A stretch of 30,000 bases of DNA from Pectobacterium sp. B1J-3 (lineage in GTDB: Bacteria; Pseudomonadota; Gammaproteobacteria; Enterobacterales; Enterobacteriaceae): positions 289,094-319,093 of the forward strand of contig NZ_JBJYIN010000001.1 in the NCBI RefSeq assembly GCF_046237015.1, in the 5' to 3' direction. Below, piece by piece: positions 3,129 through 9,404 of this stretch; position 1 is the stretch's first letter, and every line of letters begins with the position of its first letter. The notes below the pieces were generated by a model. That model searched no databases. It was given only the letters and a program-made list of their open reading frames with translations, and was not told where the DNA came from. The position numbers and the translations under genes are program-made.

Positions 3129-3156
3129 GTCACACCCTCTTTTTCCATAAGGACAA

Positions 3157-3318
3157 TATAAACCCTGAATAATTCGAGTTGCATGCAAGCGGAGACACAG
3201 CACATCCCCAAGCACTTATACCTGTCAATAATCAGGTAAGCGGCTCTTTGAGGGACGGTCATAAGCTGGCCTAATAACAAAACCAACGCACAGGCAACTT
3301 GAAGTATGACGGGGATAT
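3157..3318. repeat. ERIC/IRU-derived element, degenerate centre (copy A)
   Basis: Termini match the ERIC consensus ends: TATAAACCCTGAATAATTCGAGTTGCATG... and ...CAACTTGAAGTATGACGGGGATA. Lies 29 bp upstream of the MCP start codon. Confidence 0.7.
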
Positions 3319-3380
3319 TTATATCGAAAAAAAGAAGATAAATATTTATCCTCCGACACAAATCAAAGAATTACCGTATA

Positions 3381-3582
3381 TATATCCTAAATAATTCAAG
3401 TTGCATGAAGGCGGAAAGTGAGGGAATCCCGATGAGCTTACTTGAGTAAGTGATTCAGGTGACAAATCTGCCGGGAGCAGATTTGAACGCTGCTTGCCGC
3501 GGCCCCAACAGGGCGAGGCTCATGGATGAGCCGAATAACTAACGTAGCCAACGCACAAGCAGCTTGAAGTATGACGGATATA
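3381..3582. repeat. ERIC element carrying a ~75-80-bp internal insertion (copy B)
   Basis: TATATCCTAAATAATTCAAGTTGCATGAAGGCGGAAAGTGAGGGAATCCCGATGAGCTTACTTGAGTAAGTGATTCAGGTGA ... AGCTTGAAGTATGACGGATATA. The core matches the ERIC1R/ERIC2 primer region. An extra block containing the hairpin AAATCTGCcgggaGCAGATTT interrupts it. Confidence 0.85.
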
Positions 3583-3600
3583 TCACAACTAACACACATA

Positions 3601-3623
3601 CAACTTAAAATATGACAGGTATA
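3601..3623. repeat. isolated duplicated ERIC terminus
   Basis: CAACTTAAAATATGACAGGTATA plus the preceding ACACACATA parallels ACGCACAAGCAGCTTGAAGTATGACGGATATA at the end of copy B, 20 bp upstream. Confidence 0.5.
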
Positions 3624-3725
3624 AAAATGGGATTAAGCATGGATTAAATAGCATGAAATATGGATGAAATAAGTAAAAAAATACCGTTATAGTTAATCTT
3701 TGAAAAATAGCGGCAGATAACAATC

Positions 3726-3845
3726 TATGTACCCTGAATAATTCAAGTTTCAGGACAAAAACAGCGAAGCATGTTTGAACTGCGCTTGCGATGCCCCGAA
3801 GGCGTGAAGCTATCTGGCTAAATAACGCGACAAGCGAAAGACAAA
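3726..3845. repeat. truncated, degenerate ERIC (copy C): one terminus plus an insertion-like block
   Basis: TATGTACCCTGAATAATTCAAGTTTCAGG is followed by GTTTGAACTGCGCTTGCGATGCCCCGAAGGCG..AATAACGCGACAAGCGAAAG, which is alignable by eye to the insertion block of copy B. The far terminus is missing and the right boundary is approximate. Confidence 0.5.
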
Positions 3846-4533: not shown

Positions 4534-4836
4534 TCTCTTTTCCCCAGCAAAAACTGCTCGATCAATGATAGTTGAGATTAACTATACGCGTCCCTTTACA
4601 AGGTGAAATCGGGATTTATTGAATGAGATGTTCCATTTTTTGCAATGGCGGGGGGCAGATAAACTACAGGCGGAGGCGTCATCTTGTCCTTCTGTTATCT
4701 AGCAGTCCCAAGCATCCAGCTCAAGATTCTGGCTTAAAAATACGCCATAAGACGGCTTTTTTGTGTCTGAGCAGGAAATGATGCACAGCGATAAAGGGCC
4801 TCAAGCAGACCCTTTATATCTGTGAAAACATGTCAC

Positions 4837-5949
4837 TCAGAATGCAGTGTGCCTGACACGAAAAGAGCGGGTGATACGATCCCATATTGCGACCAGTTCA
4901 GCATCGCTGTAAGCCGGTGGGGGCAGAGCATAATTATTTAATGTCAGATCAAGATTAGGATGTCGAAAATCCGCAATTTTTTCATTAGCTACAGCGGTAA
5001 ATAGTAACTGTGCTGATGCGTTGTTGGGCGATTTTTCTGACGGGGCAGTGTTAAGCCATTCGCTGGCATCAAAACCAGCTATCTGTGTTTTGCCTTTGCG
5101 TAATGTCCGCGCATTGATACCCGTCAGATAAGACTGAATCTCATGGCTCCGCTCCAGCATACTTGTACTTTCTTTTAAGGAATTATTACTCCAGATCACA
5201 AAAGAAAAGACCGGATCATGCCGATAGACAAAGGTAATATCCTCTTTCGGCTTCCCACTCCCGTCGCGGATAAACCCTTCTGAAATACAGGTTCCCGGCT
5301 GTGTCGGGATCTCATCATCTTTTCGCCCCCTCAGACGGGACATGACATCCTGTAACTCCGCCAGCTTCTGAGGCTTGTCATTCGCCATCCATTCAGGTCT
5401 TCCTGCCTCTTTACGTAACCAAAACGCACGTTCTTTGGCAAAGTTTGGATCTGAGTAATCAGTAATCTCCTGGGAGAGAATAAACGCTACCCCGTCTACG
5501 TACAGATGTCCTTCCAGAACGCGCCCAAAACCAGGCACACTCCCATTTTTATTGCGGTCAAATATCACCGCATTTTCACTGACCCGGTACACCTGTTTGA
5601 GAAAAGGCTGATCCACTTTTCTCACTGTGTGTTCATTCTGTAATTCCTGCTCACGCAGTTGGATACGCTGCTCAAACGCCGGACGATAAAGCCGCTTGCT
5701 GCTGATATTGATTTCATTAATCTGAGCACGATCCGTCAGCGTATTTTCAAAAGAGGCCGGAACCTCAAATACATAGCGCCCCACGCACTGGGCTTTAGTG
5801 GTGGCAAATAGGGTATCGACCATACGTTTTTCCTTGTCCGTTAACGCCGATGGCGTATGCACAAACGTCACATAGTTATGAATATAAAATCCTGCCGCCA
5901 GTAGCACCATCGCCAGCGGAATAAGCCAGGGAAGAAGGACTTTTTTCAT
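4837..5949 (-). CDS. membrane-anchored periplasmic protein, candidate lipase-immunity protein (Tli-like), orphan paralogue
   Basis: 370 aa. The N-terminal MKKVLLPWLIPLAMVLLAAGFYI is a signal-anchor/TM with no lipobox Cys. Its ATG overlaps the stop of the upstream lipase remnant by 4 nt (ATGA). It is identical to the 6453..7559 product except for a ~64-aa central block. The immunity role is inferred from context only. Confidence 0.55.
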   Translation of the reverse strand: MKKVLLPWLIPLAMVLLAAGFYIHNYVTFVHTPSALTDKEKRMVDTLFATTKAQCVGRYVFEVPASFENTLTDRAQINEINISSKRLYRPAFEQRIQLREQELQNEHTVRKVDQPFLKQVYRVSENAVIFDRNKNGSVPGFGRVLEGHLYVDGVAFILSQEITDYSDPNFAKERAFWLRKEAGRPEWMANDKPQKLAELQDVMSRLRGRKDDEIPTQPGTCISEGFIRDGSGKPKEDITFVYRHDPVFSFVIWSNNSLKESTSMLERSHEIQSYLTGINARTLRKGKTQIAGFDASEWLNTAPSEKSPNNASAQLLFTAVANEKIADFRHPNLDLTLNNYALPPPAYSDAELVAIWDRITRSFRVRHTAF

Positions 5950-6194
5950 GGCGTCGGCACCTGTTGCACGATTTTTACTACCGAGCGCACCGTGAACACC
6001 ATCGCGTCCGACAGGTCACTGTAAACCGAACGAGAACGGTCTACGGGGTCCACGGCATAGGCTCTCAGCAGCGCCGCCGAATCAACATTGGACTGTGACC
6101 AGTTATAACCAGCAAGGGGAATGATGTCGTTGTGGAAGCGTCCATCCTCATCCCAGAGGGGACGATGGTAAGAACAGTTTTTGTTGTCGTCCAT
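5946..6194 (-). pseudogene. internally deleted remnant of the lipase gene (82 codons, in frame, no catalytic residues)
   Basis: The product MDDNKNCSYHRPLWDEDGRFHNDIIPLA + GYNWSQSNVDSAALLRAY + AVDPVDRSRSVYSDLSDAMVFTVRSVVKIVQQVPTP corresponds to three segments of the 509-aa protein: residues ~1-27, ~192-209 and the last ~37 aa. The HSMGG, GDGTVP and DHEGAY motifs are all missing. Confidence 0.8.
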
Positions 6195-6452
6195 GCGTTA
6201 ACCCACTGTTATTTTTAGCTATAAATGACACAGGATCCATCACCCGTCGTCTGCAAGAAATTTATATTAATATGGACAAAATAGACGGAGTCACTATCTT
6301 GTCCCTCTGTCACCTACCAGCGCCAAGCGTTCCAGCTCAAGGCTCAGGCTTAAAAATACGCCACAAGACGGCTTTTTTGTGTCTGAGCAGGAAATGATGC
6401 ACAGCGACAAAGGGCCTCAAGCAGACCCTTTGTATCTGTGAAAACATGTCAC

Positions 6453-7559
6453 TCAGAATGCAGTGTGCCTGACACGAAAAGAGCGGGTGATACGATCCCA
6501 TATTGCGACCAGTTCAGCATCGCTGTAAGCCGGTGGGGGCAGAGCATAATTATTTAATGTCAGATCAAGATTAGGATGTCGAAAATCCGCAATTTTTTCA
6601 TTAGCTACAGCGGTAAATAGTAACTGTGCTGATGCGTTGTTGGGCGATTTTTCTGACGGGGCAGTGTTAAGCCATTCGCTGGCATCAAAACCAGCTATCT
6701 GTGTTTTGCCTTTGCGTAATGTCCGCGCATTGATACCCGTCAGATAAGACTGAATCTCATGGCTCCGCTCCAGCATACTTGTACTTTCTTTTAAGGAATT
6801 ATTACTCCAGATCACAAAAGAAAAGACCGGATCATGCCGATAGACAAAGGTAATATCCTCTTTCGGCTTCCCACTCCCGTCGCGGATAAACCCTTCTGAA
6901 ATACAGGTTCCCGGCTGTGTCGGGATCTCATCATCTTTTCGCCCCCTCAGACGGGACATGACATCCTGTAACTCCGCCAGCTTCTGAGGCTTGGTGTTAA
7001 GAGACCCAACTCTAACGCCGGCTTTGATAAAACTTTCTTTATCTTTTTGATACTTAGGATCAGATAAATCGATAATATCTTGGCTGAGGATAAACGCTAC
7101 TCCGTCAACGTATAGGTGCCCTTCCAAAGTGCGGCCATATCCGCCCTCACTCCCATTTCTATTACGGTCAAATATCACTGCATTTTCACTGACCCGGTAC
7201 ACCTGTTTGAGAAAAGGCTGATCCACTTTTCTCACTGTGTGTTCATTCTGTAATTCCTGCTCACGCAGTTGGATACGCTGCTCAAACGCCGGACGATAAA
7301 GCCGCTTGCTGCTGATATTGATTTCATTAATCTGAGCACGATCCGTCAGCGTATTTTCAAAAGAGGCCGGAACCTCAAATACATAGCGCCCCACGCACTG
7401 GGCTTTAGTGGTGGCAAATAGGGTATCGACCATACGTTTTTCCTTGTCCGTTAACGCCGATGGCGTATGCACAAACGTCACATAGTTATGAATATAAAAT
7501 CCTGCCGCCAGCAGCACCATCGCCAGCGGAATAAGCCAGGGAAGAAGGACTTTTTTCAT
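6453..7559 (-). CDS. membrane-anchored periplasmic protein, candidate cognate immunity protein (Tli-like) for the adjacent lipase
   Basis: 368 aa with the same N-terminal TM anchor as the paralogue. ATGA overlap with the stop of the 509-aa lipase gene implies translational coupling. Size and topology fit periplasmic Tli-type immunity proteins. Family unverified. Confidence 0.55.
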   Translation of the reverse strand: MKKVLLPWLIPLAMVLLAAGFYIHNYVTFVHTPSALTDKEKRMVDTLFATTKAQCVGRYVFEVPASFENTLTDRAQINEINISSKRLYRPAFEQRIQLREQELQNEHTVRKVDQPFLKQVYRVSENAVIFDRNRNGSEGGYGRTLEGHLYVDGVAFILSQDIIDLSDPKYQKDKESFIKAGVRVGSLNTKPQKLAELQDVMSRLRGRKDDEIPTQPGTCISEGFIRDGSGKPKEDITFVYRHDPVFSFVIWSNNSLKESTSMLERSHEIQSYLTGINARTLRKGKTQIAGFDASEWLNTAPSEKSPNNASAQLLFTAVANEKIADFRHPNLDLTLNNYALPPPAYSDAELVAIWDRITRSFRVRHTAF

Positions 7560-9085
7560 GGTGTCGGCACCTGTTGCACGATTTTCACCACCGAGCGCAC
7601 CGTGAACACCATCGCGTCCGACAGGTCACTGTAAACCGAACGGGAGCGGTCTACGGGGTCCACGGCATAGGCCCCTTCATGATCAACATCGGTCGCTAGT
7701 ACCCCACGAATTCGTGAAGAAGAGGTCCGGATGGCCGTCACTGGCACCGTGCCGTCGCCGGGACTCCCTGCGGAAATCAGCTCATGGGTTCTTAACGGAT
7801 TGAGCTCAATAGTCTTTCCGGCATCCTTCACGGCCAGTTGTGCCGCCTTCACACGCGAAGAGATGGTCTGCGCTTTCCATGTCAAAAATGCATCAGACGG
7901 ATTATCCGCACTCGCACCGTAAAACAGCCAGGTCTGCGGATGGTATTTTCCGTTTAATTCTTCAATGAACTCTTTAACTGGCTTCTTTATTCGGTAAACA
8001 AAAGCTTCCCACTCACTGTTCGTATCCCCCAGCAGCAAATCCTGTTCACACAACCGCCACCAAGCCGTTTTGTTCAGGTAAATCTCCTCATACGGATCGT
8101 TCTTCGGCAAGGACTGGCAAGAACTGCTCTCCTCGACCTTCAGCCAGCCCAGACCATAAGCCCTGCCCGGCAGAAGTTGTAACGGACCAGGGGACTGTGC
8201 CAGCACTGGCATCAGCTTTTCCGCATTATTCCCGATAATCATTCCGGTAACGCCCCGCTCACCGGTTTTCATCCGCCGGTACGCCGCTGGCGAGCCCAGA
8301 TCCGGCATTACGCCATGCACAACTCCCAGAATATTTTCCTGCCCGTTCATGTTCTCCGAGTAGTGACGGGCAACCAGTCCCCCCATCGAGTGGGTGATCA
8401 GGATGACTTTATTGACCGCCAGACGACCGTGATAATCTCTCAGCACCTTGCGGATATACGTTCCCAGCAGCGTCGCCGAGTCCACATTAGACTGCAGCCA
8501 GTTATAACCAAAAACGTGCAGCGGGTATAAAAAACGGTGGCCATGTGCCGTTTCTGTTTCCGTCAGTACCTGTTCCACCGGCTCGTCGCCTAGCCTGATG
8601 CCAGTAAAACGCTGTCTCGCTGTCTGCAGTTTTTCCTCTCTGAAGTAGTTATCTATCAGGATATCATCGTCGTTGAGCAGGTACTGCAACCGGTCAAGCG
8701 CCTCCCCGTAGCTCTTGTAAAATGCGCATCCCCATCCCCGCTCTCGCCGCGAGGGGAATTTTTTTCCGTCCGCACCCTCGTTAAAAATAGCCCCTCGGTC
8801 ATCAACCATCGTGGTCTTCGGATCAAGCAGAAGCTTCCTTTTCTCTGGGCTGGCAAGCGGCCATTTTTTTAGCGACGAAACGCTGAATTGCCAGACCTCA
8901 TCGTCCTTATTTTTCAGGTTTGATCCCATCACCCCGGGAATAAAAATCACCGGGATCACCTTTTCTGGCGGTTTGAGGCAGACCGCCACATAATTCTTTT
9001 CTTTTGCCTGAGGAATAATGTCGTAGTGGAATCGCCCATCTTCATCCCAGATGGGACGATGGTAAGAATAGTTTTCGTCGTCCAT
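7556..9085 (-). CDS. alpha/beta-hydrolase lipase/phospholipase, candidate T6SS Tle-type (PGAP1-like/Tle4-like) antibacterial effector
   Basis: 509 aa with no signal peptide. PVIFIPGVMGSNL (oxyanion-type loop), VILITHSMGGLVARHY (GxSxG nucleophile elbow), SPGDGTVP (Asp) and DVDHEGAY (His) form a Ser-Asp-His arrangement. The gene is coupled to a membrane-anchored partner gene. Lipase fold confidence is ~0.8; T6SS effector role ~0.5. Confidence 0.65.
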   Translation of the reverse strand: MDDENYSYHRPIWDEDGRFHYDIIPQAKEKNYVAVCLKPPEKVIPVIFIPGVMGSNLKNKDDEVWQFSVSSLKKWPLASPEKRKLLLDPKTTMVDDRGAIFNEGADGKKFPSRRERGWGCAFYKSYGEALDRLQYLLNDDDILIDNYFREEKLQTARQRFTGIRLGDEPVEQVLTETETAHGHRFLYPLHVFGYNWLQSNVDSATLLGTYIRKVLRDYHGRLAVNKVILITHSMGGLVARHYSENMNGQENILGVVHGVMPDLGSPAAYRRMKTGERGVTGMIIGNNAEKLMPVLAQSPGPLQLLPGRAYGLGWLKVEESSSCQSLPKNDPYEEIYLNKTAWWRLCEQDLLLGDTNSEWEAFVYRIKKPVKEFIEELNGKYHPQTWLFYGASADNPSDAFLTWKAQTISSRVKAAQLAVKDAGKTIELNPLRTHELISAGSPGDGTVPVTAIRTSSSRIRGVLATDVDHEGAYAVDPVDRSRSVYSDLSDAMVFTVRSVVKIVQQVPTP

Positions 9086-9119
9086 GCGTTAACCTACTGT
9101 TATTTTTAATGATAAAGAC

Positions 9120-9137
9120 ACAGGTTCCATTACCTGT
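9120..9137. promoter_or_regulatory. perfect inverted repeat ACAGGT-N6-ACCTGT in the lipase leader/promoter region
   Basis: Read directly, 35-52 nt upstream of the lipase ATG (9085). The equivalent site in unit 1 (6229-6246, ACAGGATCCATCACCCGT) has lost two arm positions. Confidence 0.3.
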
Positions 9138-9273
9138 CGTCTACGAGAGGTTTATATTAATATGACCAAGCAGCACGTTAAATAATGAACATACATGCGC
9201 TTAATTCATAATGTCCAAGCGAATGATATGCCAAAATCATGGGCATACAGAAAGAATATGCCCATAAACTCAC

Positions 9274-9400
<127 letters not shown>

Positions 9401-9404
9401 TGTT

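Follow-up and report, generated by a model that had tools for sequence, protein, structure and literature searches.

Two tandem immunity genes in the genome of Pectobacterium sp. B1J-3 encode proteins that are 93% identical, and every difference between them lies within one short core, which raises the question of how paralogs can be kept the same along most of their length and yet remain strongly diverged in a single place. We addressed this question for a 30-kb window (the whole stretch of DNA that was analyzed, positions 289,094 to 319,093 of contig NZ_JBJYIN010000001.1), which contains two repeated units, unit 1 at ~4670-6282 and unit 2 at ~6283-9170. Unit 2 carries an intact lipase gene, tle4, followed by its immunity gene, tli4b, and unit 1 carries a relic of the lipase gene followed by the second immunity gene, tli4a. 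The locus is an orphan-immunity array, and the explanation that we regard as probable is that gene conversion has homogenized this array while sparing a cassette that determines specificity.

The lipase and its partners are homologs of the Tle4/Tli4 pair of the Pseudomonas aeruginosa type VI secretion system (T6SS), which places in known families what a preliminary description of this DNA had recognized as a duplicated effector/immunity module. The four genes of the two units (tle4, tli4b, the relic, and tli4a) are on the minus strand. Tle4 is a PGAP1-like alpha/beta hydrolase that matches Pfam PF07819 with 31.5 bits against a cut-off of 24.3, and its nucleophile, Ser233 (codon 8387-8389), is part of an HSMGG motif at aa 232-236 that is invariant in 61 homologs. 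Using phmmer, aa 41-451 aligned with P. aeruginosa Tle4 (PDB 4R1D_A; E=1.3e-43), and an AlphaFold2 (AF2) model with a predicted local distance difference test (pLDDT) score of 89.8 resembles the same chain in Foldseek (E=2.8e-30, template modeling (TM) score 0.73). In this model, a long stretch, 259-384, is inserted between core strands and is predicted to form the cap. Both Tli4 proteins match PF18443 (Tli4_N) and PF18426 (Tli4_C) with E-values of ~1e-42 to 1e-43 (for Tli4b, 1.4e-43 and 1.5e-43, respectively), and the AF2 model of Tli4b (pLDDT 88.1) is predicted to share the fold of 5H7Z_A/4R1D_B (Foldseek probability 1.0, TMt 0.81). A hydrophobic N-terminal helix is evident at aa 6-28 of Tli4b in both sequence and model, and no lipobox Cys is present. 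The start of tli4b overlaps the stop of tle4 in an ATGA at 7556-7559, and the same ATGA overlap joins the relic to tli4a. Relatives in Pantoea, Erwinia, Pectobacterium, Serratia, Yersinia, Enterobacter, and other genera are named 'T6SS immunity protein Tli4 family protein' by NCBI, while NCBIfam contained no model matching the lipase or the Tli4 proteins, and exact-protein look-up of tli4a, tli4b, LOG, and ypfH returned no match in a collection that does not hold the genome of the window. By family homology, Tle4 is predicted to be a lipolytic toxin that acts in the periplasm, and each Tli4 is predicted to bind and neutralize its cognate Tle4, which is supported indirectly by the two co-varying patch pairs described below. 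The linkage to T6SS is drawn because homologous modules at other loci (numbered here with the prefix L) lie directly after VgrG (L016; L038, with 84% Tli4 identity), after PAAR (L009), or near TssM (L013, L038).

To compare the units, 4640-6290 was aligned with 6255-9180 using MAFFT and pairwise alignment. The 3' part of the tli4 genes (4837-5377 and 6453-6993) is identical at 541 of 541 positions and belongs to a run of 562 nt without difference that extends past the stop codon (tract B). On the other side of the core, a second run without difference spans 332 nt (tract A) and continues at 95-99% identity to 6062 / 7672, within the tle4 3' end. The 5' part of tli4 (5570-5949) holds a single difference, at 5902, which is synonymous, and the tle4 3' ends (5950-6062 and 7560-7672) match at 108 of 113 positions, with all 5 differences synonymous and the 38 C-terminal residues identical. 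These values agree with the hand comparison of the preliminary description, which had reported no differences over the last ~540 nt of the partner genes, one synonymous difference over their first ~380 nt, and about five over the last ~110 nt of the lipase. It had also assigned a divergence of one position in seven or eight to the lipase 5' pieces, the upstream region, and the 3' flank, which holds for the tle4 5' piece (69/80) and the upstream regions (72/85, plus indels) but not for the 3' flank, where identity is not uniform (95% over the proximal 122 nt and 75% over the distal 47 nt). A middle piece of tle4, which the earlier reader had not separated, matches at 48 of 61 positions (6057-6117 and 8456-8516). 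The ~190-nt core of the partner genes is as strongly diverged as had been claimed, with 61.6% identity in a codon alignment, a 6-nt indel, a dN of 0.44, and a dS of 1.40.

The patchiness of identity between the units is far beyond chance. When the 74 substitutions in 1395 columns were placed at random 200,000 times, the longest identical run was 292 nt, and runs of 562 and 332 nt have analytic P values of ~4e-12 and ~1e-6, respectively. The non-uniform profile that was first seen by eye thus persists in a proper alignment. Between genera, the same tract regions are only 69-90% identical, which indicates that they are not intrinsically invariant. Taken together, these comparisons show that conversion has left two or more tracts that differ in age.

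We next consider what the core is. Among Tli4 proteins from 17 genomic loci, 19 metagenomic loci, and 60 database entries, aa ~134-190 fall into discrete classes, three in all: class I, represented by tli4b (DLSDPKYQKDKE.FI.AGV....LNTK); class II, represented by tli4a (DYSDP.FAKERAF.LR.EAGRP.WMAN.K); and class III (SSEIRDVSDPKYKQDR..YLNGGM.E..LNTK). The classes span Erwinia, Pantoea, Serratia, Scandinavium, Buttiauxella, Rosenbergiella, Enterobacter, Yersinia, and Pectobacterium, and a class II core is found in the cognate Tli4 of L007, L009, L010, L020, L021, L028, L034, L038, and L039. In tli4b, the core (aa ~128-189, in domain I) comprises a loop, the end of a beta-hairpin, helix 168-179, and loop 180-189. 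The class I core of the window shares 75-87% DNA identity with class I cores of other genera, and its class II core shares 77-82% with theirs; within a class, the distance between cores of different genera equals the distance between their flanks (69-90%). The core is as constrained within classes as the rest of the gene (dN/dS 0.10-0.16, with ~0.10 for class II), and between classes its dN is 0.45 versus 0.09-0.14 in the flanks.

The history of the core differs from that of the sequence around it. The part of the unit 1 backbone that was not converted (upstream region and 5' tle4) is 87% identical to unit 2, and no other locus exceeds 78% identity to it; because the cores match other genera while the backbones match each other, the core genealogy conflicts with that of the backbone. 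We also considered an independent acquisition in which the relic would be closer to the tle4 of class II modules elsewhere, and we rejected this candidate since the 5' part of the relic is closest to the tle4 of the window. As judged from these alignments, the two units may have arisen either by duplication in situ or by two acquisitions. The preliminary description had suggested comparing related strains for cassette variation, and related loci do show it: in addition to core classes shared across genera, near-identical tandem tli4 paralogs (95-100%) with one divergent patch occur in L003, L013, and L016, and in L010 at lower flank identity, the divergent patch being either the core or a cassette in domain II.

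If the core determines specificity, its class would be expected to track a feature of the cognate effector. We examined 26 adjacent Tle4-Tli4 pairs from other Enterobacterales and found that the class of a Tle4 helix is concordant with the core class in 24 of them, with helix motifs EW.AFV..IK.PVK for class I, EW.KYE..I...V for class II, and EW..[FY]QDRI..DV for class III. In a scan of all Tle4 windows against core class, only aa 354-371 stood out, ~6 standard deviations above background (between- minus within-class distance of 0.24, compared with a mean of 0.002 and a standard deviation of 0.04), and the top nine mutual-information columns all fall within Tle4 356-369. The rest of Tle4 is unstructured by core class, with aa 400-445 assorting independently, so that the signal cannot be put down to common ancestry of the backbone. 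In the model, the variable positions 356/357, 360/361, 363/364, and 367/368 are predicted to form one exposed face of helix 355-376, within the 259-384 insertion, and W359, F362, I366, and V370 make up the conserved opposite face. Because the core co-varies with this helix face, the spared core is very probably what determines specificity, as far as sequences can tell, and we infer that a contact between the helix face and the cassette sets specificity. The large cap subdomain of TplE, the P. aeruginosa Tle4, contacts domain I of TplEi (PMC5611513), and the position of the core fits a contact with the cap because the core lies in domain I.

A positive control for this approach came from a second patch pair. 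The Tli4 domain-II cassette at aa 244-262, which occurs as 'SLSVSTNT' or 'SFVVWSNN', co-varies perfectly with Tle4 aa 60-62 and 79-81, which read 'EDG…ANAK' or 'x…A[SG]PE' (normalized mutual information 1.0). In the window, the Tle4 side of this pair is at aa ~58-90 (8816-8914), and the pair was seen in L006, L012, L020, L023, L025, L028, L032, and L034. This patch aligns to TplE residues 82-108, and a peptide of these residues binds TplEi domain II, as determined by crystallography and isothermal titration calorimetry (PMC5611513). Separately, Tle4 aa 406-440 occurs in two sharply different versions ('IP.RVKEAQ…' and 'PVLRPVPVMGYPEPSSPTYRYDAG'), of which the 'PVLRPVPVMGYPEPSSPTYRYDAG' version mostly, although not always, pairs with an insertion of 5-7 residues near the Tli4 C-terminus (~aa 340). 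By its sequence pattern, this pair may represent a third interface patch.

A sister strain provides a comparison at the same chromosomal site. A Logan contig of SRR5940706 (L041), which comes from an independent assembly, carries a LOG protein 98% identical to that of the window (81% in Symbiopectobacterium purcellii), and it is collinear with window 20398-9399 at 97.7% (11 kb of flank) and with window 9276-7613 at 95.1%. The tle4 genes of the two strains differ at 64 of 1470 nt, and 24 of these 64 differences are clustered within nt 1033-1116 (aa 345-372), whereas the DNA flanking the helix is 96-97% identical. The sister strain encodes a class II helix (GNTEAEWNQYETRINKEVQGF), and the window encodes a class I helix (GDTNSEWEAFVYRIKKPVKEF); in both strains, the helix is most similar to helices of its own class from other genera (88% and 92%). 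Among loci for which both partners are known, the sister helix is most like that of L038, whose cognate Tli4 (P0003) has the core most like that of tli4a. The orphan of the window thus holds the class that matches the effector of the sister strain, since the sister helix and the tli4a core are both class II. In S. purcellii, the LOG gene directly neighbors a NUDIX remnant and ypfH, and neither tle4 nor tli4 separates these genes, which indicates that the ~4.5-kb array is an insertion in this lineage.

The remaining part of unit 1 is informative about how the orphan arose. The relic consists of three tle4 pieces joined in frame (aa 1-26, ~aa 193-210, and aa 472-509) and does not include Ser233, Asp444, or His469. 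Its start codon is preserved, as are an upstream region of ~88 nt and the ATGA in which it overlaps tli4a, and because these elements are kept, tli4a could still be expressed; its expression is inferred from the integrity of its reading frame and the upstream region. Unit 1 would once have been a second, diverged tle4-tli4 module that lost its lipase through two internal in-frame deletions. By chance, two deletions would both be in frame with a probability of 1/9, so that selection for translational coupling of the relic and tli4a is only suggested. The classification as an orphan-immunity array, to which the preliminary description had likened the locus, is borne out by the intact tli4a behind a relic, downstream of a complete tle4-tli4b pair, and by the recurrence of a tle4-tli4-[tle4 relic]-tli4 layout in Serratia, Rosenbergiella, and metagenomic loci. 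A tle4-tli4 pair followed by either relic-tli4 or a second tli4 was found in L003, L010, L013, L016, L021, L026, L031, and L035, and in Rosenbergiella L011 (9282-9941), a single tli4 lies behind a 219-codon in-frame tle4 relic that keeps both termini. We also observed that L021, a 3990-bp metagenome contig, contains two full, diverged tle4 genes in tandem with a tli4 and an origin relic between them, an arrangement that is presumed to be the ancestral state of the window array. With respect to upstream regions, a conserved sigma-70-like motif (TTGxGT, 16 nt, TAT[TG]AT) lies ~45-80 nt upstream of the tle4 start in L002-L007 and L012; stand-alone chromosomal modules hold this motif, and both window units are altered there by a ~9-nt insertion (TATTAATATAAA).

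These observations suggest the following scenario. The region would be a chromosomal island with a working unit 2 (tle4 and tli4b) and an orphan unit 1 directly after it. Tle4 would be delivered into the periplasm of neighboring cells, and periplasmic Tli4b would block it in the producer and its kin. Repeated overwriting by gene conversion between the tandem paralogs would have produced the perfect tracts of 562 and 332 nt as well as older tracts of 95-96% identity, and conversion would have stopped at the edges of the ~190-nt cassette, which corresponds to the hairpin end, helix 168-179, and loop 180-189 of Tli4 domain I. There are two likely reasons for this sparing: a mismatch of ~38% would block strand exchange, and loss of either version would be the loss of a specificity. 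Our analysis suggests that the mismatch barrier and selection acted together. Under this scenario, Tli4b (class I) would neutralize the class I Tle4 of its own strain, and Tli4a (class II) would neutralize the class II Tle4 of competitors, including that of the sister strain. Patchwise conversion with a spared segment, which the preliminary description had proposed, is consistent with the finding that the perfect tracts border a core of a different, ancient class.

Several points weigh against this scenario. Two of the 26 pairs are discordant (L005 and L022), and the pairs are not phylogenetically independent, which means that the permutation P of the co-variation is overstated. The contact between helix 355-376 and the core is proposed from sequence co-variation. 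No T6SS genes were found in the 30-kb window, and delivery in this host is predicted from homologs. Expression of unit 1 is uncertain, given a terminator-like hairpin after tli4b and no convincing promoter at 6195-6282: a sigma-70 promoter scan yielded no more hits than in shuffled sequence and none in this interval. Furthermore, the mismatch barrier alone could spare the core without selection, and two copies are too few to recover how many conversion events took place or in which direction.

The same observations can be arranged in other ways. One alternative is that a short segment (roughly the tle4 3' end, tli4, and the proximal flank) was recently copied over an older orphan, or that a recent tandem duplication took place, and that a foreign class II core was then imported. 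The 100% identity of the core flanks speaks for such an import, and foreign donors exist, as the classes are common to several genera and the modules are mobile (a ColE1-like contig, a Tn3/resolvase setting, and many chromosomal contexts); an exchange of this kind is seen in the ~85-nt tle4 patch that distinguishes the otherwise 96-97% identical genes of the window and the sister strain. However, no near-identical donor was encountered, as none of the class II cores sampled is more than 82% identical to that of the window, and the array itself is old, which follows from the 13-25% divergence of the outer unit parts. We consider this order of events unlikely, and it would still involve conversion or recombination at the cassette edges, differing from the favored explanation only in which segment moved.

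A neutral mosaic, in which tli4a is redundant, its core was spared mechanically, and the classes reflect ancestry, would account for conversion tracts that end exactly at the onset of divergence, since densely mismatched DNA is known to defeat homologous recombination. Yet tli4a remains an intact 370-codon reading frame, and the class II cores of different genera evolve under purifying selection (dN/dS ~0.10). Core class also predicts the class of a helix encoded ~0.9 kb away, although the intervening Tle4 aa 400-445 assorts independently, and the same co-variation method recovers a crystallographic interface. For these reasons a purely neutral origin appears improbable to us. An assembly artefact, whether from chimeric joining or from a repeat that was collapsed or expanded, might be suspected from identical tracts of 332-562 nt, which exceed the length of short reads. 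The units are structurally different, however, with an intact versus a doubly deleted tle4, a 6-nt core indel, and ends that are 13-25% diverged, and equivalent arrays are present in other genomes. The collinear contig of the sister strain ends at window 7613, 30 nt past the last difference between the units (7643), which is where a k=31 graph would break upon meeting this repeat, and this breakpoint indicates that the duplication is real. We find an artefact extremely hard to credit. Overall, homogenization by gene conversion with a spared specificity cassette remains the explanation that we favor.

A broader model extends this explanation to the family, and we judge the case for it to be evenly balanced. 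In this model, specificity follows a modular code of two patches, Tle4 354-371 with Tli4 134-189 and Tle4 ~58-90 with Tli4 ~244-262, which could be swapped independently. Strains would retarget their effector by an ~85-nt helix swap and keep the old antidote as an orphan, conversion would hold the rest identical, and the modules would spread on ColE1-like plasmids and Tn3-type elements. If the two-patch code is true, orphan Tli4a would be an antidote to the Tle4 of the sister strain, and very short recombination patches could switch incompatibility between strains in T6SS warfare while old immunity is retained. It would also mean that concerted evolution and diversifying selection coexist in one gene. 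The locus offers a natural minimal pair, in which the immunity proteins differ in one ~60-residue cassette and the effectors of the sister strains differ almost only in the helix face, and Tle4/Tli4 specificity is thereby directly testable with a few cassette swaps. The coordinates of the features discussed are collected in the table.

Table. Features of the tle4-tli4 array in window coordinates, with related origin stretches at other loci.
Feature	Position	Strand	Basis or detail
tle4, intact 509-aa T6SS lipase effector (predicted by homology)	7556..9085	-	Pfam, phmmer, AF2, Foldseek
tli4b, 368-aa cognate immunity gene, core class I	6453..7559	-	Pfam, AF2, Foldseek
delta-tle4, 82-codon in-frame tle4 relic	5946..6194	-	Open reading frame list, repeat families D4/D8/D9, alignments
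tli4a, intact orphan immunity gene, 370 aa, core class II	4837..5949	-	Pfam, alignment
Unit 2 upstream region (5' untranslated region / putative tle4 promoter), outer end of repeat	9086..9172	-	
Unit 1 upstream region (5' untranslated region / putative promoter)	6195..6282	-	Homologous to 9086-9172
tle4 segment aa 345-372, class I helix face GDTNSEWEAFVYRIKKPVKEF, proposed effector-side specificity patch	7970..8053	-	
tli4b divergent core, class I (…DLSDPKYQKDKESFIK--AGVRVGSLNT)	6994..7175	-	
tli4a divergent core, class II (…DYSDPNFAKERAFWLRKEAGRPEWMAND)	5378..5569	-	
Conversion tract A, unit 1 (partner 7180-7511)	5570..5901		332 nt without difference
Conversion tract B, unit 1 (partner 6433-6994)	4817..5378		562 nt without difference, runs past stop codon
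Unit 2 3' flank, diverged ColE1-type origin relic (RNAII promoter / RNAI), terminator-like hairpin 6360-6372	6283..6452	-	nhmmer, alignment
Unit 1 3' flank, second origin relic copy, terminator-like hairpin 4744-4756	4668..4836	-	nhmmer
Origin-related stretches elsewhere	L009:4164-4420; L012:11017-11102; L023:7054-7449		

The 3' flanks bear on how the module may have spread. Judged by homology, both flanks are remnants of a ColE1-type plasmid origin, a connection that was made with nhmmer through intermediate loci. The ~170-nt flanks have homologs immediately downstream of tli4 in L009, L011, L012, L021, and L023. Against the region downstream of tli4 in L009, nhmmer aligned 6306-6448 (E=2e-9) and 4717-4832 (E=2e-7), and against the origin of a Klebsiella ColE1-like plasmid it aligned 6360-6435 (E=3e-4) and 4729-4819 (E=6.5e-5). 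The L009 sequence contains a full RNAI (Rfam RF00106; 61 bits, gathering score 47), and an 86-nt stretch of L012 is 95% identical to >5000 small ColE1-like plasmids. The Rfam RNAI model had no match in 7 kb of the window at E<=1 or in 221 nt at E<=10, which indicates that the flanks are relics and not functional RNAI genes. A plasmid database contained no Tle4 relative above 60% identity, and the window flank had no blastn hit in plasmids. ColE1-type plasmids with hcp are on record in Erwinia pyrifoliae (PMC2827408). The origin relics suggest that small plasmids once carried the module, a route that is little documented for T6SS effector-immunity modules.

Other loci show the module in various settings. 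L009, a 5246-bp contig of Erwinia persicina NBRC 102418, consists of a resolvase gene, PAAR, tle4, tli4, and RNAI; no terminal overlap was found in this contig, and its gene content makes it a candidate for a ColE1-like small plasmid with a complete cassette of T6SS spike tip, effector, and immunity protein. In L039 (322-4550; Logan SRR35353264), tle4-tli4 is flanked by a serine resolvase gene on one side and a fragment of a Tn3-family transposase on the other, which suggests that the module is carried there as a Tn3-type passenger. L001 and L006, which are titled Chryseobacterium sp. 18061, hold an Enterobacterales-type tle4-tli4 (80-82% identical) beside rnd-like genes, and this assembly is probably mixed or mislabeled.

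The remainder of the window consists of housekeeping genes (ydi/aro-type operons, ypfH, tmcA, and a gene for a methyl-accepting chemotaxis protein). Repeats that resemble enterobacterial repetitive intergenic consensus (ERIC) elements are present at 9277-9398 and in several copies at 3150-3760, with sub-threshold Rfam hits to V_AS5, Ysr49, and isrH. We considered whether ERIC-like inverted repeats at 3380-3462 and 9319-9401 could bound a mobile island and rejected this idea, as the copy at 9277-9398 is absent from the sister strain and tle4 is present there. The absence of this 122-nt copy is precise, which suggests a recent insertion/deletion polymorphism unrelated to the arrival of the array. 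In S. purcellii (L042), tmcA is directly beside LOG, whereas ~17 kb separates them in the window (9405-29992). This interval contains fadK-like, ydiQRST, ydiO/F, aroD, ydiB, major facilitator superfamily, and aroL-like genes and reflects a large rearrangement or insertion.

The closest characterized system is the P. aeruginosa Tle4-Tli4 pair (TplE-TplEi, PA1510-PA1509; PDB 4R1D, 5H7Y/5H7Z), which shares the families, the folds, and the bicistron of effector followed by immunity gene with the window pair. There, the two domains of TplEi grasp the cap domain of the effector at two sites (PMC5611513). The window pair differs from the Pseudomonas pair in that identity is only 20-29%, no vgrG or T6SS cluster lies within the 30 kb, and a tandem orphan unit is present. 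Furthermore, both interfaces occur here as discrete, shuffled cassette classes, of which we found no description for the Pseudomonas pair. Rhs and contact-dependent growth inhibition (CDI) loci of Salmonella and E. coli, as cited in PMC5361080 and PMC10539506, likewise contain tandem toxin 3' fragments with intact immunity genes and are likewise reshuffled by homologous recombination between repeats. In those systems, the toxin C-terminal domain varies together with a wholly unrelated immunity protein, whereas here the proteins are homologous throughout and small patches vary. Duplicated paired and orphan immunity genes are also known within the Erwiniaceae from Pantoea agglomerans, where the patterns of similarity were attributed to intrachromosomal recombination or gene conversion (bioRxiv 10.1101/2023.03.17.533219). 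The P. agglomerans case concerns another effector family (Rhs-type tri genes), and it offers no cassette-level resolution or co-variation. The colicin DNases and their immunity proteins (E2/E7/E8/E9-Im) have a similar logic, in that near-alike immunity proteins owe their specificity to a short variable helix beside a conserved binding hot-spot and are encoded on ColE1-type replicons. The colicin proteins and their delivery are unrelated to Tle4/Tli4, and the likeness is confined to this logic and the ColE1 connection.

The nearest parallel to the array itself is found in Vibrio cholerae, where an intact T6SS effector-immunity pair is followed by effector-less immunity genes and 3' remnants of old effectors (Kirchberger et al. 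2017, PMC5361080). Cognate immunity genes similar to the V. cholerae orphans occur in other strains, and the proposed benefit of the orphans is protection from kin that still use the old effector (PMC5361080), a proposal that the comparison with the sister strain fits exactly. The two cases differ in how the effector was lost, since in V. cholerae it is displaced from the 5' side by an incoming module, and here both ends are kept and the middle is gone. They also differ in composition: members of a V. cholerae array are usually different immunity types, whereas here conversion has left the orphan and the cognate gene alike outside a single cassette. Arrays of orphan immunity genes that owe their form to recombination are already well known, and what this locus adds is in the details, namely an effector gutted in the middle, an orphan that differs by one cassette, and relics of ColE1-type origins.

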